From: Candidatus Woesearchaeota archaeon
GTDB lineage: Archaea > Nanobdellota > Nanobdellia > Pacearchaeales > GW2011-AR1
Direction of reading: 5' to 3'
Length of the DNA stretch: 64,000 nt
Assembly: GCA_964538235.1 (NCBI GenBank)
Contig: CAZIFJ010000001.1
Location: 31,348-95,347 of the forward strand
In this document: positions 13,947-51,875 of the stretch, piece by piece
How positions within the stretch are numbered: the stretch's first letter is position 1
Layout of the letters: each line of letters opens with the position of its first letter
Notes under the pieces: generated by a model
Database searches by the model: none
Told to the model about the DNA's origin: nothing
The model's input: the letters and a program-made list of their open reading frames with translations, nothing else
Made by a program: the position numbers and the translations under genes

Positions 13947-14537
13947 TTATTTTTTATTAATAATCTCATCATAGCTTCTCAACCAATTTCCAAATAAAAA
14001 CTTTCTAATTATTTCTAAGAAATTTCCTCCATCGCTCTTTGGTCTTGAGATCCAATTATATAAAACCATTAAAAATAAAATTAAAGAAATAATGAATACA
14101 ACTGGAGCTAAAAATATAATCTGCTCTCCATATGTTTCAAGAGAGTTTCTGTCCAAAATAAACCAAAAAAGATAAACATACATTAAAAATATAAGTATCA
14201 AAATTATTTCTGCAAGCCATTCAGTTCTGAAAAAAGGCAATCTTCCTATTTCATTTTTTAAATCAGGCCCCTTTATTCCATTATCAAATATTTTATACAT
14301 TAAACTTTTTTTCTGTCCCAAAGATTCTATCATAAGAATACAATAGAATAAAACAAAAAGTCCCAAAATCGACATAATAAAATACATTGGTCCCAGATTG
14401 GATTTAGAAGGCCATACCTTAAATAAAATCCATAAAGAAAAAGCAACTCCTACTGAAAAAACTGTCCAAATAAGAAAGTTACAATTTTCTGCCGAATCTC
14501 TGATTTTTTCATATTTCAACATTATTTCTTTATTCAT
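13947..14537 (-). CDS. Four-TM membrane protein, translationally coupled downstream of the RM gene
   Basis: Its start overlaps the RM stop by 4 bp. There are multiple hydrophobic helices. Confidence 0.5.
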   Translation of the reverse strand: MNKEIMLKYEKIRDSAENCNFLIWTVFSVGVAFSLWILFKVWPSKSNLGPMYFIMSILGLFVLFYCILMIESLGQKKSLMYKIFDNGIKGPDLKNEIGRLPFFRTEWLAEIILILIFLMYVYLFWFILDRNSLETYGEQIIFLAPVVFIISLILFLMVLYNWISRPKSDGGNFLEIIRKFLFGNWLRSYDEIINKK

Positions 14538-17503
14538 TTCAAACTCTCCTCAACAATTTTAATCTCTTCATCATTTAACCCATATAACTTATACACTTCT
14601 TCATCAATTTCATAATCAATATTTTTTATCTGTTGCTCTAATCTTTCTTTTTCGTTCCCAGTTGGATTTGTTTCGTGAAGTTGTTTTTGAAGCGAGAGCA
14701 TTTTATCAACTAAAGAAACTATTTTTTGTTCTTGTGATTTTTTCGGGAGACAGATTGGAAATTTCTCAATGAATCTTTTTGCATAAGAATAGTATCCTCC
14801 CCTAAATCTCGTGCTAATGTTTTTTAAATAAAATTCTAAAGTTTTGGAATTAAGTAATCCAAGAAGCAGTTTATATTTTTCTTTAAATTCTTCTTTCAAA
14901 ATTATTCCATAACCTCCAGCATTTCCACCCCCGACAAAATAATATTCTCCATTTTCATCCAACACAAATTTGTTTGAATTAGAAAGAACTTGCGTCATAA
15001 TCTTTTTCTTCTTAAATTTATCAATGTTTTGCGTTCTACCAAACTTATACCAATTTTTATCTTCGTTAAATCTGTTTTCTTCTCTCGATTTAAGTTCTTT
15101 CTCATAATCTTTCAAGTAATGATAAAAATTTGGATATTTTGATTTTATAATATCTAATTGAATTAAACTGGCTTTATCTTGGGATAGATCATAAGGATAA
15201 AGAACAGAATATCCTTCCCAATTTACAGACCATTTTCTTATTTCTTTTCCCTTAAGTAACTTTTTAATAATGCTTTTTTCAATTTTATATTCTTTATCCT
15301 TCAGATTATTTTTTACAATAAAATTATCTCTTTCTTCTTTAATTATTTTAACAAAATAATATCTATCTGCTCCAGTAATCATTCCCTGAAAAATTGCTTC
15401 AGCGATATTATTTAATCTCAAATCTATTTTGTCAAATTTTTGAAATATTTGAGAGCTATTTCCATCTGAAAAACTCCAAGTTAAATCTGAAACAGGTATT
15501 TTCTGCTCAAAACAAATTAAATTATCTTTGTTTAAAATTCCTTTATTTAACTTCATTAAATTTTTAGGAGTACAATAAAAAAATCGTGTATTATCTTCTT
15601 TATCCAAGAACAACAAGCAAGTATATGTTGTTGCATTTTCAAAAATTTGGTAATCTTTAAAATCTACTATTTCTTTAATTGCCTTATTTTTAGATATATA
15701 ATTTCTTAGATTTTTTCCATAATCTGCACTAAAGAATTTATTAGGCAATATATAACCCAATCTCCCATTTTCTTTCAATATTTTGTGACCCCTTTCTACA
15801 AATAAAATATAAATGTCATAATTCTTTTCTGGAGACTCATACATTTTATTAAAATAATCAACATCTTTTTTATTTAATGTTTGTATTCTAACATAAGGAG
15901 GATTCCCAATCACAACATCAAAACCTCCATTTCTAAAAACATCTGGAAATTGTGCGTGCCAATTAAACGCTTTGTCGCCTGCGATTTTGCTGTCGTCAAT
16001 TAAAGAATTTCCATTTTTTATATTATCTCGTAAGTTAGGTAGAAGGCGTTTATGAGTGTCTGGTGTTTCTTCTTCTAATATTTTCAATAATAAATTAAGC
16101 TGTGCTAACTCAACAGCTTTCTCATCTAAATCAACTCCATAAATACAATTTGACATAATAGATGCTTTTTGCCCCAAAGTAAGTCTATCTTTATAGAATT
16201 GGAATTGCGTGCTTTTTGCTTTCTCACCGCTTTTCAATTTTTGCTCAATTGTATTGCATAATTCTTGAAAAGCGCTCATAAGAAAACTCCCGCTTCCGCA
16301 AGCAGGGTCAACAATATTTACTTCTAAAATTTCATCAATTGTTTTATTTTTAATATATTCTCCTACTGTGTTCTTAACAATATAATCTACAATATAAGAA
16401 GGAGTATAATAAATTCCCATCTTTTTTCTCTTCCCAGTTTCAGATTCTAATTTAACTCTTTTCTCAGTGCTCTGAAGAATTGTTCCAAGATATTGTTCAT
16501 AGATGGTGCCCAATAAATCGCCAGGAATTTCATCAAACATATATCTTTCTTGAAAATCTTTTTTTCCAAAATACAAAATTCTAATAACTTCTTGAAGAGT
16601 ATTATCGTCAAAAAAGATATTTTTCTCATCTTCTAAAATACTTTTAGCGAATAATTTTGAATTATATTGTTTGTCAAAAATCAAAAATTGCTCTTCTAAA
16701 ATATCCCATATTCTCTTATGGATTCTCCCTTCTCTAAAATCTTTTACAATGCCTAAAAGAAAGTTTTTGTTTTCTAAACCTCTATCTTCAACAGAACGCA
16801 TAAAAATTAATCTATCTATTAAAATTTGAACAGCTTCGTCTATTTGTTCCTGCGATAAATATGCTCTTAATTTTTTTATGTCCTTTGAAAGCAATTCTCT
16901 AATATATAATAAATCTTCTAAAATACTTTCATCAATCGGCTTTGAAGCTTTCTCGTCTTTTTTAGAAAGTAATTCATAAATTTTTCCGTTTTCAAAACTT
17001 TCTTTTGATAACAACCAAAGCTTATCAAAATTATCTAAAAATTGCTCAAAAACCAATCTAAAATAACTTTCTCCAAGTTTTAATAAATTTTTGTCTATAT
17101 TTTTAATGTTAGTTAATGCATGGTATACTCTAATTTCTTTAAAATTAATTAAAACTGCAAATTTAATTTTTCTGTGATAAGCATAAGAAACCGCTTGTCT
17201 TCCTTCATCTTCGCTTAAACGAACAGAGGTTTTCTTAGCTTCAATAACTAATACTTCTTCGTTTCCAATTTTTAAAATATAATCTGCTCTTCCTTTCAAA
17301 ATACGAGTTTCTTTTTCAATGTCTTGCCTTTCCCACCCTAAAAGTTCAAACAATGGCTCAACATAATTCCACTTTACCCACTCTTCATTTTGGCTGTCAA
17401 TATAATCTTTATTTTTACTAGCTTGAGAAAACTGCTCAATTAATTCCTTCAACTTCTTCCTTGCTTGTTCTTTTGTCACCATATATTTCATAAAATAATT
17501 CAT
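14534..17503 (-). CDS. Type IIG restriction-modification enzyme (N-terminal PD-(D/E)xK nuclease, gamma-class N6-adenine MTase, C-terminal TRD)
   Basis: 989 aa. It has GRADYIL...VIEAKK (nuclease), VDPACGSGSFL (SAM motif I) and VIGNPPY (motif IV). Confidence 0.85.
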   Translation of the reverse strand: MNYFMKYMVTKEQARKKLKELIEQFSQASKNKDYIDSQNEEWVKWNYVEPLFELLGWERQDIEKETRILKGRADYILKIGNEEVLVIEAKKTSVRLSEDEGRQAVSYAYHRKIKFAVLINFKEIRVYHALTNIKNIDKNLLKLGESYFRLVFEQFLDNFDKLWLLSKESFENGKIYELLSKKDEKASKPIDESILEDLLYIRELLSKDIKKLRAYLSQEQIDEAVQILIDRLIFMRSVEDRGLENKNFLLGIVKDFREGRIHKRIWDILEEQFLIFDKQYNSKLFAKSILEDEKNIFFDDNTLQEVIRILYFGKKDFQERYMFDEIPGDLLGTIYEQYLGTILQSTEKRVKLESETGKRKKMGIYYTPSYIVDYIVKNTVGEYIKNKTIDEILEVNIVDPACGSGSFLMSAFQELCNTIEQKLKSGEKAKSTQFQFYKDRLTLGQKASIMSNCIYGVDLDEKAVELAQLNLLLKILEEETPDTHKRLLPNLRDNIKNGNSLIDDSKIAGDKAFNWHAQFPDVFRNGGFDVVIGNPPYVRIQTLNKKDVDYFNKMYESPEKNYDIYILFVERGHKILKENGRLGYILPNKFFSADYGKNLRNYISKNKAIKEIVDFKDYQIFENATTYTCLLFLDKEDNTRFFYCTPKNLMKLNKGILNKDNLICFEQKIPVSDLTWSFSDGNSSQIFQKFDKIDLRLNNIAEAIFQGMITGADRYYFVKIIKEERDNFIVKNNLKDKEYKIEKSIIKKLLKGKEIRKWSVNWEGYSVLYPYDLSQDKASLIQLDIIKSKYPNFYHYLKDYEKELKSREENRFNEDKNWYKFGRTQNIDKFKKKKIMTQVLSNSNKFVLDENGEYYFVGGGNAGGYGIILKEEFKEKYKLLLGLLNSKTLEFYLKNISTRFRGGYYSYAKRFIEKFPICLPKKSQEQKIVSLVDKMLSLQKQLHETNPTGNEKERLEQQIKNIDYEIDEEVYKLYGLNDEEIKIVEESLK

Positions 17504-18646: not shown

Positions 18647-18680
18647 TTAAGTTTTTAAAATGCAAATTCTTATCTATAAA

Positions 18681-19118
18681 ATGAATGAAAGAGGAATATC
18701 TCCTGTTATAGCTACTGTGCTTTTAGTTTCAATGGCAGTTGTCTTAGCTTTAATAGTTTTGTTTTGGGCAAGAGGTTTTATCTCCGAAGAAATTCAAAAA
18801 AGAGGAGAGCCAATACAAAATTCTTGCGAAGAAATAGATTTTGTAGCAGAAATTTCAGATTTTAATTTAAAAGTTATAAATAAAGGAAATGTTGCAATTT
18901 ATGGAATAGAAGTAAAAAAGAAAGACTTTGGTTCTATTTCAAATTTAGATAATCAAGATAAACAAATTCCGCCAGGAGAAACATCTGAAGAAATTTCTAT
19001 CACAGGATTATCATCTGGAGACAATGTTATTGTTGTTCCTAAAATTCTTGGAGAAAAAGATGATAAAAAAATTTCATTCACTTGCGATATTGAATTTGGA
19101 TATCCAATAAAAGTATAA
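18681..19118 (+). CDS. Archaeal type IV pilin (class III signal peptide)
   Basis: MNERGISPVIATVLLVSMAVVLALIV matches the archaeal pilin N-terminal consensus. The ORF track starts 21 nt upstream. Confidence 0.7.
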   Translation: MNERGISPVIATVLLVSMAVVLALIVLFWARGFISEEIQKRGEPIQNSCEEIDFVAEISDFNLKVINKGNVAIYGIEVKKKDFGSISNLDNQDKQIPPGETSEEISITGLSSGDNVIVVPKILGEKDDKKISFTCDIEFGYPIKV

Positions 19119-19119
19119 A

Positions 19120-19668
19120 ATGAAAATTAAAAAAAAAGGAGTTTCAGAGATTATTGCAACAGTTGTAATTCTATTTGTAACAGTTGCCACAGTTTCAATT
19201 TTATCAGTATTTATAATTCCATTTGTAAAAAATAAATTAAACTCAAGCACAGAATGTATCTCTTATAAAAATTACTTCACATTTGACGAATCTTTTAATT
19301 ATAATTGTAATTCCAGAAATTTATACGCTTTTTCAATAAAGGCCCAGACAACAACACAAAATATTTCCTCAAATATTAAAGGTTTTGATTTAATATTAAA
19401 AGCCGAAGGTTCATCAAAAAAAATTTCTATAATTAATAATGCCGATTCATCTTGTTCAGAAAATGGAATTAAAATTCTCGGAAAATCTTGTCCATCCCTA
19501 CTAAAAGTTCCTGCTGAAGGCGAAACACAAACATTTGTTTACAACAAATCTTCAGCAGAAAAAGATTTTACTTTGGTTGAAGTTTATCCTTATTTAAATT
19601 CAGGGAAATCTTGCGAAAAATCAGATGAAATAAAAATAACTTTATGTAAGGATGTATCAATAAGTTAA
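19120..19668 (+). CDS. Archaeal type IV pilin (class III signal peptide)
   Basis: MKIKKKGVSEIIATVVILFVTVATV. Confidence 0.7.
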   Translation: MKIKKKGVSEIIATVVILFVTVATVSILSVFIIPFVKNKLNSSTECISYKNYFTFDESFNYNCNSRNLYAFSIKAQTTTQNISSNIKGFDLILKAEGSSKKISIINNADSSCSENGIKILGKSCPSLLKVPAEGETQTFVYNKSSAEKDFTLVEVYPYLNSGKSCEKSDEIKITLCKDVSIS

Positions 19669-20186
19669 TGGGGAAAAAAGCACAGATTTGGATTGAGACA
19701 GCATTATACACCTTAATTGGAATTGTGTTAATAGGTCTAGTTCTCGGGTTTGTAAGCCCAAAAATACAAGAGTCAAAAGATAGAATTTTATTAGATCAAA
19801 CAATGCTTTCTCTAAATAATTTAAATAAGAACATAGATATAACTTCAAACAACGTAAGAGTTTTTCCAGTTCAAATAAAAAAAGGAGAGTTATTCATAGA
19901 TTCTAAAGAAGATAAAATAACTTTCAAGCTCGACAATATTCTCAAAGCTCCAACAGAAGAAGGATATACAATAGAAAATGGAATAGTAAAAGTTCTTTCA
20001 ACAAAAGGCAAAAAATATTACTCAGTAAATCTTACTTTAGATTATAAAGCCATTTTTGATATAAAGGTAAATAACAGAGAAGAACTTTTGAGATTAAATT
20101 CTGCTCCAGCGCCATATAAATTATCTATCTCAAATTTAGGAAAAATAGACAAACTCAATGTCATAGACATAAAAGAAATTTCATAG
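19668..20186 (+). CDS. Pilin-like/minor pilin protein with an N-terminal TM helix
   Basis: MGKKAQIWIETALYTLIGIVLIGLVLGF. It is translationally coupled to the preceding pilin. Confidence 0.55.
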   Translation: MGKKAQIWIETALYTLIGIVLIGLVLGFVSPKIQESKDRILLDQTMLSLNNLNKNIDITSNNVRVFPVQIKKGELFIDSKEDKITFKLDNILKAPTEEGYTIENGIVKVLSTKGKKYYSVNLTLDYKAIFDIKVNNREELLRLNSAPAPYKLSISNLGKIDKLNVIDIKEIS

Positions 20187-20225
20187 TTTGATAAGTTTTA
20201 AATATAACTCTAAACTTTTTTATTA

Positions 20226-21761
20226 ATGGTATTTTCAATAAACCTTCACCCTGTAATTCCAGCTCTTCCAAAAATAAAAGATAAAAAATTAGTTAATGTT
20301 AGATATATGTTGATTCCACCTTATGCTTCCGCACATATTTATTGGAATAAAGAAATAAGCGAATTAATTTATGAAATTGAAGAACCTTTATTGCAAGAAA
20401 ACGAAAAACTTCTTTTAGATAAATTAGAAGAAGCAATGCTCGAAATTGTTAATATAAATGTAGTTATAGAAAACACAGTAGAAGCAACAATCAATTACAT
20501 TGACAAAACTGTGAAATTATTAATAGACGAATTAAATTTATCAATTTCATTTGAAACTTATCAAAAAATATTTTATTATTTATTTAGAGATTTTGTCGGC
20601 TTTAATGAGGTTGACCCCCTATTGAAAGATTATTTTATTGAAGATATTGAATGCAATGGAGTAAATACCCCAGTTTATATTGTACATAGAATTTATAGAA
20701 ATCTTAAAACGAATTTAATTTACAAAGATGGTGATAAGTTGGCGAGTTTTATTGAAAAATTAGCTCAGCGAGCAGGAAGATATGTTTCTTATGCCCAGCC
20801 ACTGCTAGACGGAACTCTTCCAGATGGCAGCAGAATAAATGCAACTTACACAAAAGACGTCACTTCAAGGGGCCCGACATTTACGATAAGAAAATTCACG
20901 CAAGTTCCTTGGACCCCGACACAGCTAATAGCATTTAATACTTTAAGTCCTGAAATGCTCGCTTATTGTTGGCTTTTAATTCAATATAAATCAAGTATTT
21001 TAGTTGCTGGCGGAACAGCTTCCGGAAAAACAACTTTATTAAATGCATTAGCATTTTTTATTCCTCCCGAAGCAAGAGTCGTAAGCATTGAAGATACAAG
21101 AGAATTAAACCTTCCAAGAGAGAACTGGCTTCCGGCCGTTGCAAGAACTTCTATCGGTATAGGAAAAGTTGGAGAAGTTGATTTATTCGCAATTTTAAAA
21201 AGTTCTTTTAGACAAAATCCAGATTATTTAATCGTTGGAGAAGTTAGAGGAAAAGAAGCTTTTGTTTTATTTCAGGGAATGGCCTCAGGGCACGCCTCAC
21301 TAAGCACAATGCACGCAGATTCAGTTGATACTTTAATTAGAAGATTACAAACTCCTCCAATAAATTTATCTCCAACATTAATCAATACTTTAGATTGTGT
21401 GGTGATAGCAACTCACGCGGTTATTAAATCTCAAGAAACAAGAAGGATAAGAGAAATAGTAGAAATAGTAAACATAAACAGAGACGGCTCTGCTTTAATT
21501 AATACTCCATTTAGATGGGACCCAAGAACAGACCAATTTTTTTCCAAGAAACAGAGCAAGTCGTTTGAGAAAATTTCGATAAGGACAGGGATATCTTTAG
21601 AGAAATTAAGACTCGAGTTTCTTGCACGCACAAGACTTTTATATGCTCTCTTCAAAAAGAAAATTTTTGATTTTGATGAAATTCAAAGAATAATAAACGA
21701 GTATTATAAAAATCCAACACAAGTTCTTAATAGATATGATATTATCGACGTAGTTCAATGA
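20226..21761 (+). CDS. Type II/IV secretion-family ATPase (archaeal FlaI/TadA-like pilus assembly ATPase)
   Basis: Walker A VAGGTASGKTT, with Asp box, Walker B and His box (ATHA). 511 aa. Confidence 0.85.
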   Translation: MVFSINLHPVIPALPKIKDKKLVNVRYMLIPPYASAHIYWNKEISELIYEIEEPLLQENEKLLLDKLEEAMLEIVNINVVIENTVEATINYIDKTVKLLIDELNLSISFETYQKIFYYLFRDFVGFNEVDPLLKDYFIEDIECNGVNTPVYIVHRIYRNLKTNLIYKDGDKLASFIEKLAQRAGRYVSYAQPLLDGTLPDGSRINATYTKDVTSRGPTFTIRKFTQVPWTPTQLIAFNTLSPEMLAYCWLLIQYKSSILVAGGTASGKTTLLNALAFFIPPEARVVSIEDTRELNLPRENWLPAVARTSIGIGKVGEVDLFAILKSSFRQNPDYLIVGEVRGKEAFVLFQGMASGHASLSTMHADSVDTLIRRLQTPPINLSPTLINTLDCVVIATHAVIKSQETRRIREIVEIVNINRDGSALINTPFRWDPRTDQFFSKKQSKSFEKISIRTGISLEKLRLEFLARTRLLYALFKKKIFDFDEIQRIINEYYKNPTQVLNRYDIIDVVQ

Positions 21762-21793
21762 AAGATATTTAAAGAATAAAAATTATTTTATTA

Positions 21794-21955
21794 ATGGACA
21801 AAGCTCAAATAACTGCTCTTGCGCAACTTCTCACAAGCATGAAAGATTCAATTTATAGATTAGAAAAAGCAATAGAAAAAAATAGTCTTGAGGAAGAATT
21901 AGCAGTTAAAAAAGAAATTTTAAGTTTTCAAAAAGAAGTGGAAAAAATGTTATGA
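21794..21955 (+). CDS. Small ORF (53 aa) between the ATPase and platform genes
   Basis: MDKAQITALAQLLTSMKDSIYRLEKAIEKNSLEELAVKKEILSFQKEVEKML. Its stop overlaps the start of the next gene. Confidence 0.3.
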   Translation: MDKAQITALAQLLTSMKDSIYRLEKAIEKNSLEEELAVKKEILSFQKEVEKML

Positions 21956-23253
21956 TAGAACAATTAAAAAACAACATACAGACAGAAATTAATATTTTAA
22001 GAGAAATATCAAATTTTAGCAGACTTTATGAAATATATAAAGAAAAAGAAAAGTATCTTATTTTATCTGCTATAGATGCATTAAAAAAAAGTATAAAAAT
22101 AATTAATAATTCAATTCCAGCATTATTAAGTAATACTTCTTCAACCAAAAAATTATCTACAAGTAAAAATATTAAAACTTTAGAAAAAGTAGGATTTCAT
22201 TCAGACAACACTAATTTACTAGTTACTTTAAACTCAAAAGATAAAGAAGTTTTCTTAAAGGAATTGAACATAGGAAGTTCATTAATAAAAAAATTAAAAA
22301 AAATTAAATCAGAAAATAAGCCTGATTCGGCAGAAACTTTCGAGGTCTCAAGAGGTTATCTTAAAGTTTCTAATTTAATGTTTAGAAAGTTAGCATATTC
22401 TTTAATAAAGAAAGGTTATTTTAGAGGGTTGTCAAATGAAATTCAAAAATCAAATCTAAATATTTTATTTGAAACTTATGTCTCAACAATTATTCTAACC
22501 ACTTTTATCGGCTTTATTTTTTCAATTTTTCTTTTAATATTTCTATTATTTTTTCAAATAAGTTTTAGCCCACCATATATAGAATCTTTCTCTGGAGAAA
22601 TTTTCAAAAGATTTTTTTCTCTGCTCTGGATTCCCATAGCTATTCCTTTCGTAGTTTTATTTTTAGTTTATTACTATCCTATTTCAGAAAAAGAAACTTT
22701 AGAAAGAAAAATTAATCAAGAACTTCCATTTGCAGTTATCCATATGAGCTCGATTTCTGGCTCAGGAATAGAGCCCACGGAAATTTTCAAAATTATAGGA
22801 TTAAGTAGAGAATATCCTGCTTTAAGAAAAGAAATAAGAAAAGTTCTTAATCAAGTAAATTTATATGGATACGACCTAGTCACTGCTTTAAACAATACTT
22901 CAAAAATAACTCCAAGCGTTTCTTTAAGCGAATTATTTTCAGGATTATCAACTACAATTAATTCAGGTGGAAATCTTTCAGATTTTTTTCAAAAAAGAGC
23001 AGAAACTCTTTTGCATAATTATCGTCTCGAAAGAGATAAATTCACAAAAATCGCAGAAACTTTTATGGATATTTACATCAGTGTTGTTTTAGCAACACCG
23101 ATGATTTTAATTCTTCTTTTAGTTATAATAAATGTTGCAGGAATTTCTATTGGTTTTTCTACAATTCAATTAACATTAATTACGATTTTGATAATTACTT
23201 TAATAAATATTATATTCTTAGGAGTGTTGCATGTAAAGCAGCCAGCATATTAA
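21952..23253 (+). CDS. Pilus platform membrane protein, part 1 (FlaJ/TadB-like, T2SS-F domain)
   Basis: A cytoplasmic N-domain followed by multiple TM helices, adjacent to the ATPase. Confidence 0.65.
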   Translation: MIEQLKNNIQTEINILREISNFSRLYEIYKEKEKYLILSAIDALKKSIKIINNSIPALLSNTSSTKKLSTSKNIKTLEKVGFHSDNTNLLVTLNSKDKEVFLKELNIGSSLIKKLKKIKSENKPDSAETFEVSRGYLKVSNLMFRKLAYSLIKKGYFRGLSNEIQKSNLNILFETYVSTIILTTFIGFIFSIFLLIFLLFFQISFSPPYIESFSGEIFKRFFSLLWIPIAIPFVVLFLVYYYPISEKETLERKINQELPFAVIHMSSISGSGIEPTEIFKIIGLSREYPALRKEIRKVLNQVNLYGYDLVTALNNTSKITPSVSLSELFSGLSTTINSGGNLSDFFQKRAETLLHNYRLERDKFTKIAETFMDIYISVVLATPMILILLLVIINVAGISIGFSTIQLTLITILIITLINIIFLGVLHVKQPAY

Positions 23254-23254
23254 A

Positions 23255-24112
23255 ATGAAATTCAAAAAAGTTCATGGGATAGGTTTGTTTGTTGGAGCTA
23301 TTCTGTTAGTATTAGATATAATTTATTTTACAGAAGAAAAAATATTTAATTTTATTCTAGGAATTTCTATTTTTATTTCTATTTTGCCTTTTATTATAGA
23401 AATAAATTTAGAAAATAAAAAAGAAAAGGAAATAAGTACAATGTTTTTAGAATTTTCTAGAAGCCTATCCGAAAGTGTTACAACAGGAACACCAATAAGT
23501 AAAAGTATAATAAACATGAAAAAGAAAAATTTTGGGGTTTTAACTCCACATATAGAAAAATTAGCAAATCAGATAGAAATAGGGATTCCTGTTCATCGCG
23601 CTTTACAAAATTTTGCATACGAAGTTGACAGCCCAACAATTAAGAGAGCAGTCGCCTTAATCAGAGAAGCAGAAAGGGCTGGGGGGGAAATAGATTATAT
23701 TCTTTCTTCTGTCGCAACTTCTATTTCAGATGTACAAAAACTTAAAGAAGAAAGAAAGGCTATGATTTATAATTTGGTTGTTCAGGGATATATAATATTT
23801 TTCATTTTTATTGGAATTATGTTAGTAATGGAATTTAAGATTCTTCCTTTAGTCTCTGACTTAAATGGTTTTGGAGGATTTGATTTATCTTCCATTCCAT
23901 CTACAACAGAAGAAAATTCCTCGAGCAATTCGAATTTAACACCCCAAGATTTAGCAACACCATTTTTATTATTATTATTATCTCAGGGTATTTTAGCAGG
24001 GTTGACCATAGGAAAATTAGCAGAGGGGAGCATAATTTCGGGTATCAAACACTCTTTTATATTATCAATGACTGCTTTTCTAGTATCAACCGGCGTTAGA
24101 GCGTTTTTCTAA
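23255..24112 (+). CDS. Pilus platform membrane protein, part 2 (TadC-like, T2SS-F domain)
   Basis: A TM, then a cytoplasmic helical domain, then TMs. It is 1 bp after part 1, so the platform is split as in bacterial Tad systems. Confidence 0.6.
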   Translation: MKFKKVHGIGLFVGAILLVLDIIYFTEEKIFNFILGISIFISILPFIIEINLENKKEKEISTMFLEFSRSLSESVTTGTPISKSIINMKKKNFGVLTPHIEKLANQIEIGIPVHRALQNFAYEVDSPTIKRAVALIREAERAGGEIDYILSSVATSISDVQKLKEERKAMIYNLVVQGYIIFFIFIGIMLVMEFKILPLVSDLNGFGGFDLSSIPSTTEENSSSNSNLTPQDLATPFLLLLLSQGILAGLTIGKLAEGSIISGIKHSFILSMTAFLVSTGVRAFF

Positions 24113-25176: not shown

Positions 25177-25878
25177 ATGAAAAGAGGAGCAAGTCACGTT
25201 GAATTTATAATATCAAGCATTATGTTTATTAGTTTTGTAACTTTTATTTTATTTTTATTTAACATCCAAGAAAAATCCAACCCTGCAGAATTTTTATCAG
25301 AAAATATTTTCAATTCTTTAAAAGAAAATTCATCTGTCAATGTAGAGTATTATTATGTTTCTATAGATTTAACTGCAGTTAATAATAAACCATCAATTCA
25401 AGTTTCTTTAAACAGCATGCCAATAAATAATTTTGTCAGAGTAGAAAATTACTCTGGAGCAGTTTTACCATCAAAACTTGATGGTAATAATATAAAAATA
25501 GAACACTTAGATAATAATTTAATTATAATAATGCTTAGCGAAGATTTTCTTCCATTTAGTGGAAATGTAAATTCAGATTTTTCCAATTCCGGTTATTCAA
25601 TCATCTCTTCCAATTCAGAAAGAATTATTTCAGAAAAAAGAATTTTAAAAATAGAAGACTTATATTATTTAGATTACGTTTCTCTCAAAAAAAATTCATT
25701 CAAGCTCTTGGGTAATTTAGATTTCTTGTTCAAATTAGAATTTTTCCCTTCTAATTTTATAGAAGCAAAAATGAATATTCCTGAAGGGGTTGACATTTTT
25801 TCTCTTAATGAAAGAATTTTTGTTTTAAGATCCGATGGAACTAGAGCATCTGCTGATATGGAGGTAAAAGTATGGTAG
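25177..25878 (+). CDS. Class III signal peptide (pilin-like) protein
   Basis: MKRGASHVEFIISSIMFISFVTFILF. Confidence 0.6.
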   Translation: MKRGASHVEFIISSIMFISFVTFILFLFNIQEKSNPAEFLSENIFNSLKENSSVNVEYYYVSIDLTAVNNKPSIQVSLNSMPINNFVRVENYSGAVLPSKLDGNNIKIEHLDNNLIIIMLSEDFLPFSGNVNSDFSNSGYSIISSNSERIISEKRILKIEDLYYLDYVSLKKNSFKLLGNLDFLFKLEFFPSNFIEAKMNIPEGVDIFSLNERIFVLRSDGTRASADMEVKVW

Positions 25879-26306
25879 GAAAAAATGGCGTCTTGAGGGT
25901 ATTAGAAACCACAATAGCAATATTAATAATTTCCTCAGTAGTGATCTTTTTTTCAGTTAGAACACAAAATGAAAACGATTTACATTTAGATAAAATAGCA
26001 CCACCCTTACTAGAAGAAATATCAAAAAATACAAGTTTAAGAGATATTGTAATTTCTTCAAACCAAGAAAATAAAAAGAATAATGAAAAAATTATAATTG
26101 ATTTTATTTCTCCAAAGATAAAAATTGGAGGAATAAATTATACTGTTAAAATTTGCGAATTAAATGATATTTGTGTTATTGATACACCGATTGATTCTTT
26201 TGATGACATTTATGTTTCGGAAAGAGTAATTAGTGCAACACCTTTAGTTGGTTTTAATCCAAAGATAGTTAAAATTTTTCTCTGGCGCTCAAAGCCAAAA
26301 CCATAA
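25872..26306 (+). CDS. Pilin-like protein
   Basis: MVGKNGVLRVLETTIAILIISSVVIFF. It overlaps the previous gene. Confidence 0.5.
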   Translation: MVGKNGVLRVLETTIAILIISSVVIFFSVRTQNENDLHLDKIAPPLLEEISKNTSLRDIVISSNQENKKNNEKIIIDFISPKIKIGGINYTVKICELNDICVIDTPIDSFDDIYVSERVISATPLVGFNPKIVKIFLWRSKPKP

Positions 26307-26343: not shown

Positions 26344-28959
26344 ATGAAAAAAAGAGTTTTTTTGGTGTTTTTCTTATTTATTTTTTTATCAAATTTTTCT
26401 TCAGCAGATTTTATATATTTTAATAATTCTATTGAAAAAGTATATTCTTCTGGAGATAATGTTGCAGGTTTTTTTAATATAAGCTTTAAAGATGCAAAAG
26501 CAGATTCTTTATTGACTTCCAATTTTCCTGGAAATATTTCTCTTTTAGAATTTTTAGAAATTCAAGATCTAACTTTAAATGAAGATTATAATTGTAGTTT
26601 AAAAGATTGCTTAGATTCTTATTCTTCAACAAATACGATTTCTTCTTTAAGCGTAACTGGCGAGTCTATTTTAGGATTTAAATTGGAAGGTGAAGAAGTT
26701 CTTGTAAGGGATATTAAGCTGAAGATTGAAAGCGATTCTCCAAATTCTTGTTTAAATCCCCTCTCAATTAATATTCCTGAAAGTTTTCAAAAAATAACTA
26801 GTGATGTTTACACTCAAAATACTTGCTTTTCTAAAAACTATGGTTGTTTTTCTTCTTCAAATTCTTATCAAAATGTTACTATATCAAATACACAAATTTG
26901 CGAGAAATTAACTTTGCCTCCCGCTCCGGCATATAAATTAGGGGCGAAAATTACAAACAGCACAAAAGGTATTGCTACACTTTCAATGACTCTATATACA
27001 ACCCAAGGCTCGCTTTTAGAAAAATGCAATCTACCAAATCATATAGAGAAAACAGAAGAATTATCTTGTATAGTCAATCATCGCTCTTCAATTTCACAAG
27101 AGTATTTAGTTTGTGTTTTATCCAATATCCCATTTTCTTCAACAAGCCCAGATTATACAATTCGCTCTGAAACAAGCTCTCCTGTTTGTGGCTCAAACGA
27201 TTTAGGAGATACTTTCAAAAAAGATTATGAAATTTTTGCTCAATCAATGGAGTTCGGAAAAATCTCCATTCAAATTTTAGACTCTTCAAAATTTTTCTCT
27301 CCAGATAAATTATCTTCTATTTTTCAAGATTATCTTGAAGAAAAATATAATTCATTTTGTAAACCATTTTGCATAGTTCCTATTAAATTTTCTGGAAACC
27401 CTCAAAACTTGATTTTTTCTGATATTAACTTGGCATATTTATCTGATGGTGACGCAACATCAACAAACTCACTTTATACTACCTCAATACAAAAACCAAA
27501 AATAAATTCAAAACCTATCCAATTAGACTTATCTTTAATTAATTTTACAATTGACTCTCCAACAAAAAAAGAATTTATTTTATATTTAGACGATGAAATA
27601 ATATTCCAGCAAAAAATAAATATTTCAGATAGTTTTCAATTTGATATATCTCCTAAATTTGCTCTCCACGGCATAAACACGATATTTTCCATCAATTTAA
27701 ACAAAAATATTAGCAAAATTTCAGTGGATTTTGGAGATGGAGTTTCATCAGAATTTTTAACAAAAAATTTCTCTCATTCATATAAATCTCCAGGAAATTA
27801 TAAATTGATTGTTTCTGTAAAAGACTCACAAGGTTTAACTTCTATTAAAAAATTTAATATTTTTGTTGGAAATCCAAAAGAATCTGCATCAATAAAAATA
27901 GCAGACTTTGAATCAAAAATTTCAAATCTTACTCAAAAAATATTATCTTATCCTTCATGGATTCAAAATAATATAAAAAATACGATTGAATTAGAAGAAT
28001 TAAAATCTTCTATAAAAAAAATAAAAGATGATTTTAATTCTTCAGAATCAGATGAAGATTATATTTCTGTTGTTGAAGGTTTATTAAATCTATATATACC
28101 CTATTCCATATCAACAACTCAATCTGGAGAAATTCCTTTAATAGCAGGTTTAGATTCAATAAATTCAGATTACATAAAATCCATTTCTAATTTTGAAGGC
28201 GAAATTTCCGATGAATCTTTCAAGTCTTCAGTTTCTTCTTGGATTACAGAGAATTTTGATGCACAAATTTCTTTCCAAACAATTTCATCTTTTTCAGATT
28301 TAGAAATATCTCCATTATTAACTTCCTTTAAAATAGATTTAACAAAACTATCCTCTGATACAGAGATAGCATATTTAATTATTGATAGACCATTTGATTC
28401 CATAACTTTTTTAAAAGATTACGGCCAAAAATTAATTGAATCCGCAACTTATATTCCAATAAAATCTTCTTTATCCATAGAATTTTTAGCTGAAGATGGA
28501 GAAGACTTTTCAAGTCTTGGATTTTATCTCTCTCCCGACATTCAATTTTTAGAAATCTTTCCAGTAGAATCTGAAATAGAAGAGTTTGAAAAGAAATATC
28601 CAATCGGAAGAGTATCTATAATAATTTCTATAATTTTCTTTTCTTTTCTTGTAATTTATATAATTTTACAAGAATGGTACAAAAAGAGATACGAATCTTA
28701 TTTATTCAAAAGTGCTGAAGATATATATAATCTAATTAACTTCATTTCAAATGCAAGAAAATCTGGTTTAAATGATTCAGACATAAGGATAAAATTATCA
28801 AGAAACGGTTGGAATAATGAACAAATAACTTATGCTTTCAAAAGATTTGATGGAAAAAGAACAGGTATGTTTGAAATTCCTTTATTCAGATTTTTAGAAC
28901 AGAAAAAAATTAAATCAGAACTTGAGAAAAGAAATTTTGTTAGAGGAAAGATTTATTAA
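26344..28959 (+). CDS. Large surface protein (871 aa): signal peptide, ~750-aa ectodomain, single TM, ~110-aa cytoplasmic tail
   Basis: The N-terminal signal is MKKRVFLVFFLFIFLSNFSSA. There are many N-x-S/T sequons. The TM segment is VSIIISIIFFSFLVIYIIL and is followed by a basic tail. Confidence 0.6.
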   Translation: MKKRVFLVFFLFIFLSNFSSADFIYFNNSIEKVYSSGDNVAGFFNISFKDAKADSLLTSNFPGNISLLEFLEIQDLTLNEDYNCSLKDCLDSYSSTNTISSLSVTGESILGFKLEGEEVLVRDIKLKIESDSPNSCLNPLSINIPESFQKITSDVYTQNTCFSKNYGCFSSSNSYQNVTISNTQICEKLTLPPAPAYKLGAKITNSTKGIATLSMTLYTTQGSLLEKCNLPNHIEKTEELSCIVNHRSSISQEYLVCVLSNIPFSSTSPDYTIRSETSSPVCGSNDLGDTFKKDYEIFAQSMEFGKISIQILDSSKFFSPDKLSSIFQDYLEEKYNSFCKPFCIVPIKFSGNPQNLIFSDINLAYLSDGDATSTNSLYTTSIQKPKINSKPIQLDLSLINFTIDSPTKKEFILYLDDEIIFQQKINISDSFQFDISPKFALHGINTIFSINLNKNISKISVDFGDGVSSEFLTKNFSHSYKSPGNYKLIVSVKDSQGLTSIKKFNIFVGNPKESASIKIADFESKISNLTQKILSYPSWIQNNIKNTIELEELKSSIKKIKDDFNSSESDEDYISVVEGLLNLYIPYSISTTQSGEIPLIAGLDSINSDYIKSISNFEGEISDESFKSSVSSWITENFDAQISFQTISSFSDLEISPLLTSFKIDLTKLSSDTEIAYLIIDRPFDSITFLKDYGQKLIESATYIPIKSSLSIEFLAEDGEDFSSLGFYLSPDIQFLEIFPVESEIEEFEKKYPIGRVSIIISIIFFSFLVIYIILQEWYKKRYESYLFKSAEDIYNLINFISNARKSGLNDSDIRIKLSRNGWNNEQITYAFKRFDGKRTGMFEIPLFRFLEQKKIKSELEKRNFVRGKIY

Positions 28960-28980: not shown

Positions 28981-29619
28981 ATGCTTAAAATATTAAGAGA
29001 TTTTTCAAAGAGGATATTATATTCCATATTTAAGAAAAAAGAGAATATAAAAATTGGTTTATATGGCCCACCAAATTCTGGAAAAACTAGCTTAGCAAAC
29101 TTGATTTGTAAAGATTGGACTGGTGAAGAATTAGGAGCAGTTAGTAAAATTCCTCATGAAACAAGGCATGTTCAATTCAAGGAAAAAATAGAAATTAAAT
29201 ACAAGGGAAAAAGTTTGATAATGAAAATGATTGATACACCTGGAATTGCAACAAAAATAGATTATGAAGATTTTTTGAAATATGGTGTAAATAAAAAAGA
29301 AGCGAAAAAAAGAGCGCGAGAAGCTACTCAAGGAATTATAGAATCTATTCAATGGCTAGATGATATGAATGCAGTTATTGTTGTTTTAGATTCAACAGGA
29401 AATCCTTATTCTCAAGTTAATATTACAATAATCGGAAATTTAGTAGCGAGAAAAATTCCGGTTTTGATTGTCGCAAATAAAATCGATTTGAGAAAGTCAA
29501 GTGTTAAAAGAGTTGAAGCGGCATTTCCAGAATATGAGGTTGTTGGAATTTCTGCAAAAGAGGGAAAAAATCTAGACGAGTTTTATGAAGCCTTGTTTAG
29601 ATTGTCAAAGAAAATATGA
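28981..29619 (+). CDS. Small Ras-superfamily GTPase (archaeal predicted GTPase)
   Basis: G1 GPPNSGKTSL, G3 DTPG, G4 NKID. 212 aa. Confidence 0.75.
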   Translation: MLKILRDFSKRILYSIFKKKENIKIGLYGPPNSGKTSLANLICKDWTGEELGAVSKIPHETRHVQFKEKIEIKYKGKSLIMKMIDTPGIATKIDYEDFLKYGVNKKEAKKRAREATQGIIESIQWLDDMNAVIVVLDSTGNPYSQVNITIIGNLVARKIPVLIVANKIDLRKSSVKRVEAAFPEYEVVGISAKEGKNLDEFYEALFRLSKKI

Positions 29620-30026
29620 GTTTCAAAAATAAAAATACAAAAGAGAAAAAAATTCATGGACTTAGTTTACAAGTAATTCCATTTTCAGAAGTACAACAAT
29701 TATCTATTTCTGAAAGAGTAAAAAAAGTATTAAGTTTAGTTTTAAGCAATAAAGTTGTTATCTTACATGGGAGATTAAGAGCAGAAGAAGAGGCGAGATT
29801 AATTGAAGATACTATGGCCCTTGTAGGTAACTTAAAAAATTTTAAAGGAATAGAATTAGCAGTCATAGAGCCCGATATAAAAAATGAAAGTTTCTTTATA
29901 AAACTCAGACATGGAATAGCAAAAAGACTTGTCGGAGACAATAGTGCCTTGACAGTTATTGGTCCAGCTTCTATAATAAAAGACATAAAAAGAGATCCTA
30001 AGAAAATAGAGCTTTTATTAGGCTAA
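29616..30026 (+). CDS. Conserved small partner protein of the GTPase (possibly DUF2073-like or roadblock-like)
   Basis: Translationally coupled to the GTPase by a 4-bp overlap. 136 aa. Confidence 0.4.
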   Translation: MSFKNKNTKEKKIHGLSLQVIPFSEVQQLSISERVKKVLSLVLSNKVVILHGRLRAEEEARLIEDTMALVGNLKNFKGIELAVIEPDIKNESFFIKLRHGIAKRLVGDNSALTVIGPASIIKDIKRDPKKIELLLG

Positions 30027-30064
30027 ACCAAAAGATTTAAATACAAATAAGATTAATCTTATTT

Positions 30065-30283
30065 ATGTTAATTGACACAACAAAAATGAGCTCAAGAGGA
30101 CAAGTAGTAATTCCTTTAGATATACGGAAGGGAATTAAAGAAGGAGACAAACTTATAGTCATTAGAAAAGATAATGAGATTATTATAAAAAAATCAATTC
30201 CAGAAACAGCGATATGGTCAGAAAGTTCATTATCAAAAACTTGGCTGAATAAAGAGGAAGACGAAATATGGAAAAATTTGTAG
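30065..30283 (+). CDS. mazE: MazE/AbrB-SpoVT family antitoxin
   Basis: MSSRGQVVIPLDIRKGIKEGDKLIVI fits the swapped-hairpin SpoVT/AbrB motif. It overlaps the next gene. Confidence 0.7.
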   Translation: MLIDTTKMSSRGQVVIPLDIRKGIKEGDKLIVIRKDNEIIIKKSIPETAIWSESSLSKTWLNKEEDEIWKNL

Positions 30284-30600
30284 GAGGAGATGTAGTTATT
30301 CTAAATTTTCCTTTTACAAATCTCTCAAATAAAAAAAGAAGACCTGCTTTAATTATTAAAGTTCCAAAGGGTGAAGATTTGATTGTCTGTCAAATAACAG
30401 GAAAATCATACGATTCTTCAGTTGAAGTGGTTTTAAAAAAAGAAGATTTTCAAGAAGGAAATTTAAAATTAGAAAGCTATCTCAGAATAGACAAAATGCT
30501 TTCAATTGAGAAATATTTAATAAACTACAAAGCAGGCTCATTAAAAAAAGAAAAATTTAATGAAATTCTAGATAAAATTTGTAATTTTCTAAAAGAATAA
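30268..30600 (+). CDS. mazF: MazF/PemK family toxin
   Basis: GDVVILNFPFTNLSNKKRRPALII...ITGK fits the PemK/MazF consensus. Confidence 0.75.
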   Translation: MEKFVGGDVVILNFPFTNLSNKKRRPALIIKVPKGEDLIVCQITGKSYDSSVEVVLKKEDFQEGNLKLESYLRIDKMLSIEKYLINYKAGSLKKEKFNEILDKICNFLKE

Positions 30601-30648
30601 AAAATAAAAATTCCCTCAGAAAATTAGAGGGAAAATAAAAAATTAATT

Positions 30649-31125
30649 TTATGGATCACAACAAATACAAGAACTTCCATCTTTAATAGCAATACTACAA
30701 GCAATGACATCTCCTGAAGAATTACTTCCAAGAAAACAAGTTCTAGGTTTACGATCAAAAGTATTACCTATAACTTTACATGCTCCAACACATGTATTTG
30801 AAGAACCATAGTTTAGTCTATCTGCTTCTTTTTTAATTGAACTAGCATTTGCTATAACGTGCTGTTTACATGATTGAATTTTATCAAAAATAGTACTAAT
30901 ATCTGTTTTACTATCAATTTTTTTCTCTAAATATTCAACAGCACTAGTCAGTACTTCATTTGTATAAAAAAGATTGTCAACTTCCTGCTTAGTATAAACT
31001 TCAGTTCCTTTTTTAGCAGATGAAACTTTTATAACATCTCCAGTCAACTTAACTGTCCCAAACACAACTATTCCAGAAACAATTAAACAAATAATCAATA
31101 CCATCCAAAAATCCTTTGTTTCCAT
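30649..31125 (-). CDS. Secreted/anchored Cys-rich small protein
   Basis: There is an N-terminal TM segment. Eight Cys are clustered at the C-terminus (CVGAC...CICC). Confidence 0.45.
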   Translation of the reverse strand: METKDFWMVLIICLIVSGIVVFGTVKLTGDVIKVSSAKKGTEVYTKQEVDNLFYTNEVLTSAVEYLEKKIDSKTDISTIFDKIQSCKQHVIANASSIKKEADRLNYGSSNTCVGACKVIGNTFDRKPRTCFLGSNSSGDVIACSIAIKDGSSCICCDP

Positions 31126-31217
31126 TTATTTCATTCCTCCTTTCATTTTCAAATAAGTTTTTCAAACTCAAATTTTTAATGGATATATATATATATCTTT
31201 CGTTCTTAACTAAGATT

Positions 31218-31616
31218 ATGCCCTACAAATGTGTTCATTGCGCAGAATTTTATGATGACGGCTCGCAAGAGCTTCTTATTGGCTGCAAAAATTGCGGTAG
31301 AAAATTCTTTTTTTATATTAAAAAGGAAAAATTTGAGTTAATGCAACAAATGCAAAAACAAGAAGAGATCGTTTTAACAGAAAAGGAAAAGAACCAGATG
31401 GAAGAAGACGTCAGGCAGATTGCAGGAATAGAAAACGAAGAAGTTCCAGTTTTTCTTGAATTTGAAAGTGTAAGTATAGTTAAACCAGGAAAATACTTAA
31501 TTGATTTGACAAAGCTGTTTGCCCAAAACAAACCAAGAATTTATAAGTTAGAAGATGGGAAATATATAGTTGATATGTCCTCTTCATCGAAAAATAAGAA
31601 TAATAGTATCATTTAA
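31218..31616 (+). CDS. Zn-ribbon protein (DUF2072-like) with a C-terminal NKPRIYKLEDGKYIVDM motif
   Basis: MPYKCVHCAEFYDDGSQELLIGCKNCGRKFFFY has the C4 ribbon. The ORF-track start at 31116 is probably too far upstream because it overlaps the convergent gene. Confidence 0.55.
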   Translation: MPYKCVHCAEFYDDGSQELLIGCKNCGRKFFFYIKKEKFELMQQMQKQEEIVLTEKEKNQMEEDVRQIAGIENEEVPVFLEFESVSIVKPGKYLIDLTKLFAQNKPRIYKLEDGKYIVDMSSSSKNKNNSII

Positions 31617-35800: not shown

Positions 35801-36331
35801 CTAATCTCCTCTAAAAACATATTTTTCGCCTCTTTTATATACAATTCCTGCGTAAAATGGCTCTTCTTTTCCATATAAGGAAGTATATATTCCATTCATA
35901 ACGTTTCCTAAAAATCCAGCCACTTTTCTATTTCCAGAATTTGGCATATTTGCTTTTAGAGCATGACTCATATGTTGATTTTTTGCCCTTTGTATAATAT
36001 CTTCCAAGTCAGAATCTCCAAACATATCTACAATATATTTTCCATCTTCCGACTTATGTATTCTTGGTTTGTTTTTCCAGGTAGTTAATTTATCAACTCC
36101 TTCTATTAATTCTAAACTAAGTTCTGTAGGCGTTTCAGTTCCACTTCTAATATCAGGCAATACATTTTCTATATCTTCACTTTTACCTTGATAATAAAAA
36201 AATCCATAAGCTTCTCCAATTTTTTCACTTACTTTTCTTCCAGCTCTTCCGTCAATACAAATTTCTCTACCATTTTTATCAATAAAATCGTAGGATTTAA
36301 TTTCTTTTATCATAATTATAATCAGATTCAT
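35801..36331 (-). CDS. Hypothetical protein sharing a ~40-aa domain with the Zn-ribbon protein at 31218
   Basis: LSLELIEGVDKLTTWKNKPRIHKSEDGKYIVDMFG matches LEFESVSIVKPGKYLIDLTKLFAQNKPRIYKLEDGKYIVDMSS. Confidence 0.45.
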   Translation of the reverse strand: MNLIIIMIKEIKSYDFIDKNGREICIDGRAGRKVSEKIGEAYGFFYYQGKSEDIENVLPDIRSGTETPTELSLELIEGVDKLTTWKNKPRIHKSEDGKYIVDMFGDSDLEDIIQRAKNQHMSHALKANMPNSGNRKVAGFLGNVMNGIYTSLYGKEEPFYAGIVYKRGEKYVFRGD

Positions 36332-46508: not shown

Positions 46509-46663
46509 AGCCTCTAAGGGGATTTGAACCCCCGACCCCGAGTTTTTTTGTCTGACAAAACCAAGGTTTTGTCAACGCCCGTAGAACTTCTTTCCACGGC
46601 GGCTTCAATTCTGAAGAAATTGAAGCTTACGAAACTCGTACTCTACCGCTGAGCTATAGAGGC
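46509..46663 (-). tRNA. tRNA-Thr (anticodon CGU) with a ~84-nt intron in the anticodon loop
   Basis: Reverse-complemented the sequence is GCCUCUA-UA-GCUC-AGCGGUA-GAGU-A-CGAGU-UUCGUA, then the intron, then A-ACUCG-GGGUC-GGGGG-UUCAAAU-CCCCU-UAGAGGC-U. The intron contains two hairpins. Confidence 0.75.
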
Positions 46664-51603: not shown

Positions 51604-51875
51604 AAAAAATGTAGATAAATAGTTCTCTTATTTATTAAAAAATTTTTAAATAGTAACATAAGATTTATAAACAAACATAATAGTTTAAGGTTTATTACTA
51701 CAATTTAATTAATTTTAAGCGAAAGCTTTTTAAAGCGTTTTTCATATGTTTAATTATCTCTTTATGTAGAGTAAGCATGGTATGAGAATACCATCTTGGC
51801 GGGCTTCAATGCCTCCTCAAAGAGGGATCTTATGATTGCCAATCTTACAAAGCTGAAAGGGGGTTGAAAAAAAGA

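Follow-up and report, generated by a model that had tools for sequence, protein, structure and literature searches.

An ArvABC GTPase module with an upstream PKD surface protein and an interrupted ArvB-ArvC junction in a Pacearchaeota-type DPANN archaeon

The window analysed here is a 64,000-nt stretch of contig CAZIFJ010000001.1 from Candidatus Woesearchaeota archaeon, and all positions refer to it. It contains genes for a small GTPase, an overlapping partner and a C4 Zn-ribbon protein which, judged by their sequences, are almost certainly the ArvA-ArvB-ArvC (OapA-OapB-OapC) module of a Pacearchaeota-type DPANN archaeon. The reading preferred for the whole locus, and considered a probable one, is that of an ArvABC module extended on its 5' side by a surface protein, interrupted at the ArvB-ArvC junction, and engaged in vesiculation by homology with Haloferax. 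The conserved unit is the PKD protein with ArvABC and not a pilus with ArvABC, because the PKD gene adjoins ArvA in 73 of 75 relatives while the pilus genes vary. The trio has already been published and its DPANN members are already catalogued; the new elements are the surface-protein linkage and the insertion hot spot at the junction, which are new on the basis that no ArvA literature later than Mills et al. (2024) was found. The features of the locus are the following.

26344-28959, plus strand: type I membrane surface protein with a PKD domain, 871 aa (PKD_4, 1.2e-7, and predicted topology)
28981-29619, plus strand: ArvA (OapA) GTPase, 212 aa (Pfam MMR_HSR1, PF01926, E = 4.7e-14, 52.9 bits)
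29616-30026, plus strand: ArvB (OapB, formerly DUF2073), 136 aa (PF09846, E = 8.7e-17, 61.4 bits against a cutoff of 27)
30065-30283, plus strand: MazE/AbrB-type antitoxin, 72 aa (PF04014, 7.8e-9, 35.8 bits against 24.7; TIGR01439, 9e-10)
30268-30600, plus strand: MazF/PemK-type toxin, 110 aa (PF02452, 2.2e-11, 44.4 bits against 23.1)
30649-31125, minus strand: Cys-rich protein with an N-terminal transmembrane (TM) segment, 158 aa, convergent with MazF (no Pfam or NCBIfam match)
31218-31616, plus strand: ArvC (OapC, formerly DUF2072) C4 Zn-ribbon protein, 132 aa (PF09845, E = 1.5e-22, 80.8 bits against a cutoff of 23)

For the comparison, 24 proteins of the window were searched by tblastn against 80 related loci of the Pacearchaeales-type clade (labels up to L080; labels from L081 onwards denote further contigs). 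Counts were corrected for contig truncation, an eligible locus being one with enough flanking sequence for testing the gene in question. ArvB was identified directly 3' of ArvA in all 75 eligible relatives and its start overlaps the ArvA stop by 4 bp (ATGA) in the window; ArvC was present in 58 of 59. The original prediction, made from the letters alone, had described a GTPase, an overlapping partner and a Zn-ribbon protein about 1.2 kb downstream with MazEF between them, and all of these open reading frames (ORFs) are present. It had also named an archaeal neighbourhood of a GTPase with DUF2073 and DUF2072, which is real: Pfam now names the two families OapB (PF09846) and OapC (PF09845), and both are matched above cutoff. 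The start then assigned to ArvC (TTG 31116) was wrong: it lengthens the protein by 34 spurious residues and makes the gene falsely overlap the one on the minus strand. ArvC starts at ATG 31218 (MPYKCVHC), because in the ORF read from TTG the PF09845 match sets in only at residue 36, and because the relatives all share an MP[HY]xC[VI]xC N-terminus. Numbered from MPYKC, the four cysteines are C5, C8, C23 and C26. A 176-aa ORF on the minus strand (35801-36331), absent from every relative, contains a segment (residues 86-107) 73% identical to the C-terminal motif of ArvC (KPRIxKxEDGKYIVDM); about 56 nt under this segment have ~88% DNA identity to positions 31524-31589, as if part of arvC had been duplicated recently.

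The surface protein upstream of ArvA comprises a signal-like N-terminus, the PKD domain at residues ~433-500, a single C-terminal TM segment at ~753-777 and a tail of ~94 aa. The single-pass topology first proposed for it stands with this one TM segment, and the ~110 aa then given for the tail is corrected to the length stated here. Its gene ends 21 bp before the ArvA start. Among the 75 eligible clade loci, the 73 with the PKD gene directly 5' of ArvA carry both on the same strand, and the gap between the two has a median of 9 bp, with 5-6 bp in many loci and overlaps in some. The homologues are ~890 aa long, and 72 of 75 present a C-terminal TM segment followed by a ~100-aa tail. Mean identity to the window protein is 55% in the tail versus 30% in the ectodomain (n=66), and the tail consensus is YKRxYExxLFKNxxDLYNLINFIYNxRxxGLxDxxIxxKLxxxGWxxEQIxYAFKKIDGKRTGMxEIPIFK. 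A domain identity was sought for the tail in Pfam (E up to 10) and with phmmer against the PDB, which gave only sub-threshold noise resembling helix-turn-helix and EF-hand domains. A hidden Markov model (HMM) of the tail matches exactly one protein per locus, always the product of the gene upstream of ArvA, and for that reason the possibility that the tail is a modular tag carried by other surface proteins was rejected. The window encodes two further surface proteins, both without the conserved cytoplasmic tail: an 883-aa S-layer-like protein (PF05124) at 51864-54515 on the plus strand and a 651-aa CARDB/NEW3 protein at 57547-59502 on the minus strand.

Beyond the 80 relatives, a metagenome scan with a diverse ArvA profile provided 80 further diverse loci, 14 of them tail-positive, and in all 14 the tail protein lies directly upstream of ArvA. 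The linkage of tail and ArvA also holds in L085 and L090, whose ArvA proteins are 70% and 67% identical to that of the window, and the PKD-ArvA linkage is lost at 60-63% ArvA identity (L084, L089 and L091). The stronger constraint on the tail than on the ectodomain implies a conserved intracellular partner, for which the abutting Arv proteins would be the obvious candidates. That the tail is a functional partner of the Arv proteins is put forward only as a tentative proposal. The same low likelihood is given to the wider idea that in Pacearchaeales-type DPANN archaea the Arv machinery acquired a dedicated membrane partner, the PKD surface protein, with a tail that would either recruit ArvA, ArvB or ArvC or undergo sorting by one of them.

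The second new element is the ArvB-ArvC junction, which is a recurrent landing site for accessory genes, the MazEF block of the window being one instance. This block measures 1.19 kb and comprises MazE-MazF and the convergent Cys-rich membrane gene. An AbrB-fold antitoxin is followed by a PemK/MazF toxin, both above the Pfam cutoffs, with the two genes overlapping by 16 bp; as a type II toxin-antitoxin system the module presents nothing unusual and belongs to the accessory cargo of a variable junction. The three cargo genes (MazE, MazF and Cys-rich) are missing from all of the 80 related loci and are present in L081, a near-identical contig of a different data set. The distance between ArvB and ArvC is bimodal in the relatives, measuring 31-106 bp in ~30 loci and 0.3-3 kb in 32, and the suspicion that an insertion had split the trio was correct, given the short spacing frequent in relatives and the absence of the cargo genes from them. 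The junction cargo of other loci comprises PIN toxins (L012, L020), secreted RCC1-repeat proteins with a shared MK[IFV]EV[ND] N-terminus (L033 and, by sequence inspection, L009), TatD (L080) and an ORF that weakly matches a DDE transposase (L002). Cargo without a Pfam match includes Cys-rich secreted ORFs and a recurring HNH-like family of ~200 aa (L014, L026, L079). At the edges of the insertion the search for a target-site duplication returned only the 8-bp AT-rich TAAGATTA on both sides, which is compatible with chance, and no compositional signature was identified, the GC content of 0.27 being that of the background. A hairpin (CCCTC-N9-GAGGG) lies at ~30612-30630 between the convergent MazF and Cys-rich genes, and the 92 bp in front of ArvC are an AT-rich spacer that contains an (AT)n tract. 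These two elements make it probable that ArvC is transcribed independently, from its own promoter, in this strain.

The reference system for the trio is that of H. volcanii, in which OapA/B/C (HVO_3014/3013/3012) were renamed ArvA/B/C (Mills et al., PNAS 2024; PMC10927574). The yield of extracellular vesicles (EV) decreased 2.9-fold upon deletion of arvA and 3.1-fold upon deletion of arvB, and increased 3.5-fold with arvA overexpression and 1.65-fold with arvC deletion; ArvB was proposed to be GEF-like (guanine nucleotide exchange factor) and ArvC GAP-like (GTPase-activating protein) (PMC10927574). The same study lists 1,666 ArvA homologues in 14 archaeal phyla, 7 of them DPANN, and its Dataset S10 comprises 163 Pacearchaeales and 256 Woesearchaeales genomes with ArvA. 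ArvB is immediately downstream in 93% of the family, and ArvC is at most two genes downstream in 78% and occurs somewhere in 91% (PMC10927574). The lower conservation of the ArvC position in that survey is explained by the repeated insertions at the ArvB-ArvC junction. In the window ArvC is the fifth gene downstream of ArvA, outside the usual two-gene range of the family, into which the relatives without an insertion fit; that range is common in the family and does not strictly define it. Relatedness to HVO_3014 was judged indirectly, through the genome tables of that paper and through haloarchaeal-type representatives, and the evidence is strong. L054 (PEVX01000022) and L022 (JAGVWR010000052) belong to genomes listed in its Datasets S10/S11, and both present the same PKD-ArvA-ArvB-ArvC order with ArvA 74-76% identical to that of the window.

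The window shares with H. volcanii the three families, their order, the translational abutment of ArvA and ArvB and a predicted helix before the G-domain. The differences are the operon-linked 871-aa PKD surface protein with its conserved tail, which is clade-specific, the lack of an origin or orc1 adjoining the module, and the displacement of ArvC by the MazEF and Cys-rich insertion. By analogy with H. volcanii, the module would remodel membranes or form vesicles with ArvB as a positive and ArvC as a negative element, and this is regarded as the more probable function. In the mechanism envisaged, GTP-bound ArvA would engage the membrane via its basic N-terminal helix and promote budding and EV release; ArvB would be the positive co-factor, GEF-like as proposed, and the Zn-ribbon ArvC the negative regulator, GAP-like as proposed. 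Were the Arv proteins to have a membrane receptor or a cargo partner, the tail of the surface protein would be the leading candidate, and the insertion at the junction would leave ArvC in need of its own promoter. What the data show directly are the families, the order of the genes, their conservation, the insertion and the comparisons of folds; vesiculation in DPANN archaea and the GEF and GAP roles are carried over by analogy, and any interaction of the tail with the Arv proteins is inferred.

The eukaryotic system closest in logic is Arf1/Sar1 with its GEF and Zn-finger ArfGAP. ArvA presents a small G-domain after a predicted N-terminal helix, and membrane binding by that helix is an Arf/Sar trait which has been proposed for ArvA; the putative activator (ArvB) and Zn-dependent inactivator (ArvC) are parallel to the eukaryotic pair, and the phenotype in H. 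volcanii is one of vesicles. However, the Arf score of ArvA is below the cutoff (PF00025, 17.8 bits against 22.3), Arf/Arl structures rank under MnmE, Era and Der, and neither ArvB nor ArvC is homologous to a Sec7 or ArfGAP domain.

ArvA of the window contains the motifs G1 GPPNSGKT, switch I PHETR, G3 DTPG, G4 NKID and G5 SAK. It is ~77-83% identical to thousands of proteins of 212-213 aa in metagenome-assembled genomes of Pacearchaeota/Nanoarchaeota. When 1.84 billion cluster representatives (1.84e9 proteins) were searched exhaustively, the family proved compact, with 381 clusters. Acidic haloarchaeal-type members are 40-50% identical to the window protein (one match at 40%, E 9e-58), and a 13-sequence family-wide alignment, haloarchaeal-type members included, has the invariant pattern GxPNxGK[TS]...PHET[RK]...DTPG...ANKxD...S. 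The AlphaFold2 (AF2) model is a single G-domain with a mean confidence (pLDDT) of 89.7, from whose core an N-terminal helix (residues 4-15, pLDDT ~50) is detached; residues 2-12 have the highest hydrophobic moment of any 11-mer in the protein and a net charge of +5.

The label Ras-like, first given to this GTPase, proved loose: Pfam Ras (PF00071) scores 20.8 bits against a cutoff of 21.6, below threshold like Arf, and the nearest G-domains are those of Era, Der and MnmE. The NCBIfam matches are to Der, HydF, Era and MnmE, and each stays well under its equivalog cutoff, the best being Der (57.8 bits against 306.7) and Era (47.4 against 237). The PDB sequence search returned only Der/EngA G-domains, and the best Foldseek matches of the model are the G-domains of MnmE, Der and Era (E ~2e-10, 20-24% identity), Rab, Arl and Arf structures matching about ten-fold more weakly. 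No equivalog cutoff of a translation or ribosome GTPase was passed among Der, Era, MnmE, YihA, HflX and Obg. Although the closest sequence and structure similarity of ArvA is to this MMR_HSR1 group, it lacks the KH domain, the tandem G-domains and the N-terminal and helical domains of MnmE, and has its own ArvB and ArvC partners. From sequence and model, ArvA is best described as a free-standing G-domain nearest the Era/Der/MnmE group and a member of none of those translation-associated families. A grouping of the GTPase with them and a partner unlike DUF2073 had been named beforehand as what would speak against the original prediction, and neither was found.

Two variants of the family were observed. 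Four homologues (P0122, P0136, P0140 and P0146) contain an intein in the P-loop (GPPNAGK|C...HN|[TS]TLANR), including two of the acidic haloarchaeal type and one of the low-GC DPANN type (67% identity). Inteins usually reside in highly conserved, essential proteins. Three others (P0149, P0153 and P0161, of 277-283 aa) have an N-terminal extension of ~80 aa which is helix-hairpin-helix-like (L.EL.YVGEKTA.KL...GF.TK), a nucleic-acid-binding type of domain unexpected for a "vesiculating" GTPase.

The AF2 model of ArvB has an alpha/beta fold with pLDDT 77.8. Its Foldseek search against the PDB gave no significant match, the top probabilities being for SepF (3ZIG, 0.75; 6SAT, 0.57), and a profile search of PDB sequences with ArvB found nothing. 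SepF, the FtsZ membrane anchor of archaea and bacteria, is the sole recurring fold resemblance of ArvB, with a TM-score of 0.52 normalised to the target, and the likeness had already been remarked (PMC10927574). In contrast to SepF, ArvB presents no sequence similarity to it and no membrane-targeting helix, and the E-values of the matches are 0.14 or worse. The equivalent profile search with ArvC returned only a generic Rpo12-type Zn ribbon (E 0.011).

Several points weigh against a vesiculating, surface-linked Arv module. Vesiculation is known experimentally from H. volcanii alone, and the study itself allows different roles for other ArvA-family members (PMC10927574). In sequence and in structure ArvA comes closest to the G-domains of MnmE, Era and Der and not to those of Arf or Sar; the hydrophobic moment of its N-terminal 18-mer is equalled by 568 of 5000 shuffles, which is not significant, and the pLDDT of the helix is low. 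Linkage of the PKD gene to ArvA is limited to a single clade, in which synteny extends over more than 20 kb and includes the unrelated CCA enzyme (found in 51 of 52 eligible relatives), TrmB, SPP, FttA and the proteasome; because the synteny spans such obviously unrelated genes, adjacency by itself is a weak argument for functional coupling. Finally, ArvA is ~80% identical across a whole order of genome-reduced archaea and some family members carry P-loop inteins, both more typical of an essential housekeeping protein and a hint at a more essential role in DPANN archaea, whereas the arvA knockout of H. volcanii grows slightly faster (PMC10927574).

These last points also speak for the best surviving alternative, in which ArvA of DPANN archaea is an essential housekeeping GTPase related to the ribosome or translation, Era/Der-like, and the surface protein is its neighbour only through synteny frozen in a compact genome. 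The matches to Der, Era and MnmE agree with it, as do source annotations as "Era-like" or "50S ribosome-binding GTPase", the extreme conservation of ArvA and its retention in tiny genomes, the inteins, the reach of the clade synteny to unrelated genes and the neighbours found elsewhere, which are often translation genes (ribosomal operon, aIF2, tRNA synthetases, RtcB, CCA enzyme). However, the equivalog cutoffs are missed widely, and a single domain of 212 aa leaves no place for the KH, second G or other RNA-binding domains of Era and Der. ArvA also travels with ArvB and ArvC, which show EV phenotypes in H. volcanii, and frozen synteny sits poorly with an upstream tail far more constrained than its ectodomain and with a surface-gene stop abutting the ArvA start. 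This alternative is judged unlikely, and the vesiculating module is retained as the preferred reading.

A weaker alternative is the one originally proposed, that the GTPase and its partner act like MglA/MglB on the adjacent type IV pilus or adhesin, as a switch of polarity or assembly. MglA/MglB are a Ras-like GTPase and a roadblock GAP which control type IV pilus polarity in Myxococcus. The pilus genes of the window are the following.

18660-24112, plus strand: type IV pilus core with three pilin-type ORFs, the T2SSE ATPase (20226-21761) and two T2SSF platform proteins (PF00437, 2.5e-30, for T2SSE; PF00482, 7.6e-17 and 2.1e-15, for T2SSF; Pilin_N weak)
25177-25878 and 25872-26306, plus strand: two overlapping pilin-like genes, 233 and 144 aa, with prepilin-type N-termini

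The two pilin-like genes had been called pilins. Their prepilin-type N-termini, [KR]G|xSHIE and K[KR]G|xxRIVE followed by a hydrophobic stretch, show the class III signal-peptide motif of archaeal type IV pilins (basic residues, G/A at -1, hydrophobic helix) and are indeed conserved in relatives, but Pfam gives no match (Pilin_N), the canonical archaeal pilin N-termini being located further upstream (18660-20186). They form a neighbouring module and are not a demonstrated part of the Arv unit. The likeness to MglA/MglB consists of a small GTPase encoded with a small partner and of a complete pilus core and pilin-like genes 3-10 kb upstream on the same strand. Pilus genes near ArvABC were also identified in a few loci outside the clade, of which L089, from another Nanoarchaeota lineage, has a type IV pilus core, L083 (Aenigmatarchaeota) a prepilin peptidase next to ArvA and L091 a Peptidase_A24 (A24) gene 5 kb downstream of ArvA (6573-7451).

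Against this model, no roadblock, longin or MglB fold was present among the top 50 Foldseek PDB matches of the ArvB model, which removes the structural basis of the analogy and leaves the weak SepF resemblance. Within the clade, the pilin-like genes and the pilus platform lie less than 10 kb upstream of ArvA in only ~63-70% of eligible loci, and the pilin-like genes stand anywhere between 0.1 and 6.8 kb from the PKD gene, the intervening space in annotated examples being taken by FmrO, RtcB, Archease or unknown ORFs. Among the 80 diverse loci, ArvB is adjacent to ArvA in 74 and ArvC in 56, whereas T2SSE occurs in 4 of them, T2SSF in 2, which are both tail-positive, and A24 nowhere. The Pfam census of the immediate neighbours of tail-negative loci comprises radical SAM (4/42), PhoU (3/42), methyltransferases (4/47) and otherwise mixed housekeeping genes, and pilus, PKD and Orc1/Cdc6 families are not listed among these 42-47 loci. 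The phenotypes in H. volcanii are moreover those of vesicles. The resemblance to MglA/MglB is superficial and ArvA-ArvB is not a member of that system; of the GTPase-regulated pilus/adhesin idea, the surface protein stands and the pilus does not. Coupling to the pilus at this locus is regarded as quite improbable, and as a family-wide property it is unsupported, as is an association with replication origins.

In eight annotated contexts, including Micrarchaeota and Aenigmatarchaeota, ArvA-ArvB is kept, ArvC usually, and the flanks differ. The individual features are the following.

L086:7886-8908 and L087:7973-8968: radical SAM gene upstream of ArvA
L086:10277-10954: Yip1-domain (PF04893) membrane protein overlapping the ArvC end by 4 bp
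L083:8119-8982: prepilin peptidase (Peptidase_A24) 18 bp upstream of ArvA
L082:10310-13324 (Micrarchaeota): 1004-aa PKD protein without the tail motif, convergent to and abutting ArvA-(109 aa)-OapB
L089: type IV pilus core 4-8 kb upstream

Radical SAM proteins, some with SPASM, are the commonest immediate upstream neighbours of ArvA outside the Pacearchaeales clade. In eukaryotes, Yip1 proteins interact with Rab and act in vesicle trafficking, which makes the pairing of Yip1 with Arv suggestive; the 80 diverse loci, however, yielded no further case. The A24 peptidase was likewise rejected as a recurring neighbour, the case of L083 not being repeated there. In L082 no OapC was called nearby.

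The weakest alternative, that the trio is origin-associated and acts in replication beside oriC and orc1/cdc6, follows the Pfam names "Origin-associated protein OapB/OapC" and the H. volcanii operon adjoining the main origin (PMC10927574), but it is very improbable and largely refuted for this locus, as no Orc1/Cdc6 occurs among the large ORFs of the 64-kb window, these families are not among the commonest neighbours in the 42-47 diverse loci, and a replication function could not be assigned in H. volcanii (PMC10927574).

Two other features of the window were recorded. A single-polypeptide restriction-modification enzyme of the Eco57I/MmeI type (type IIG/IIL), 989 aa, is encoded at 14534-17503 on the minus strand. 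The sole RNA gene detected in the 64 kb is a 155-nt tRNA, presumably intron-containing, at 46509-46663 on the minus strand (Rfam 50.5 bits), which was missed by ARAGORN.

With regard to its significance, the junction hot spot is useful for annotating Pacearchaeales-type genomes. The surface protein evolves fast and is nevertheless kept in translational contact with ArvA order-wide, and its tail changes nearly as slowly as the Arv proteins do. Should this tail bind the GTPase module, an archaeal vesiculating GTPase would for the first time have a candidate membrane receptor or cargo, and there would be a concrete handle on envelope remodelling in genome-reduced episymbiotic archaea. An extracellular adhesin or receptor would then be coupled to GTPase-driven budding or remodelling, a prokaryotic analogue of the cargo-tail-driven recruitment of Arf/Sar coats and possibly the device by which episymbionts build contact structures or vesicles towards their host.

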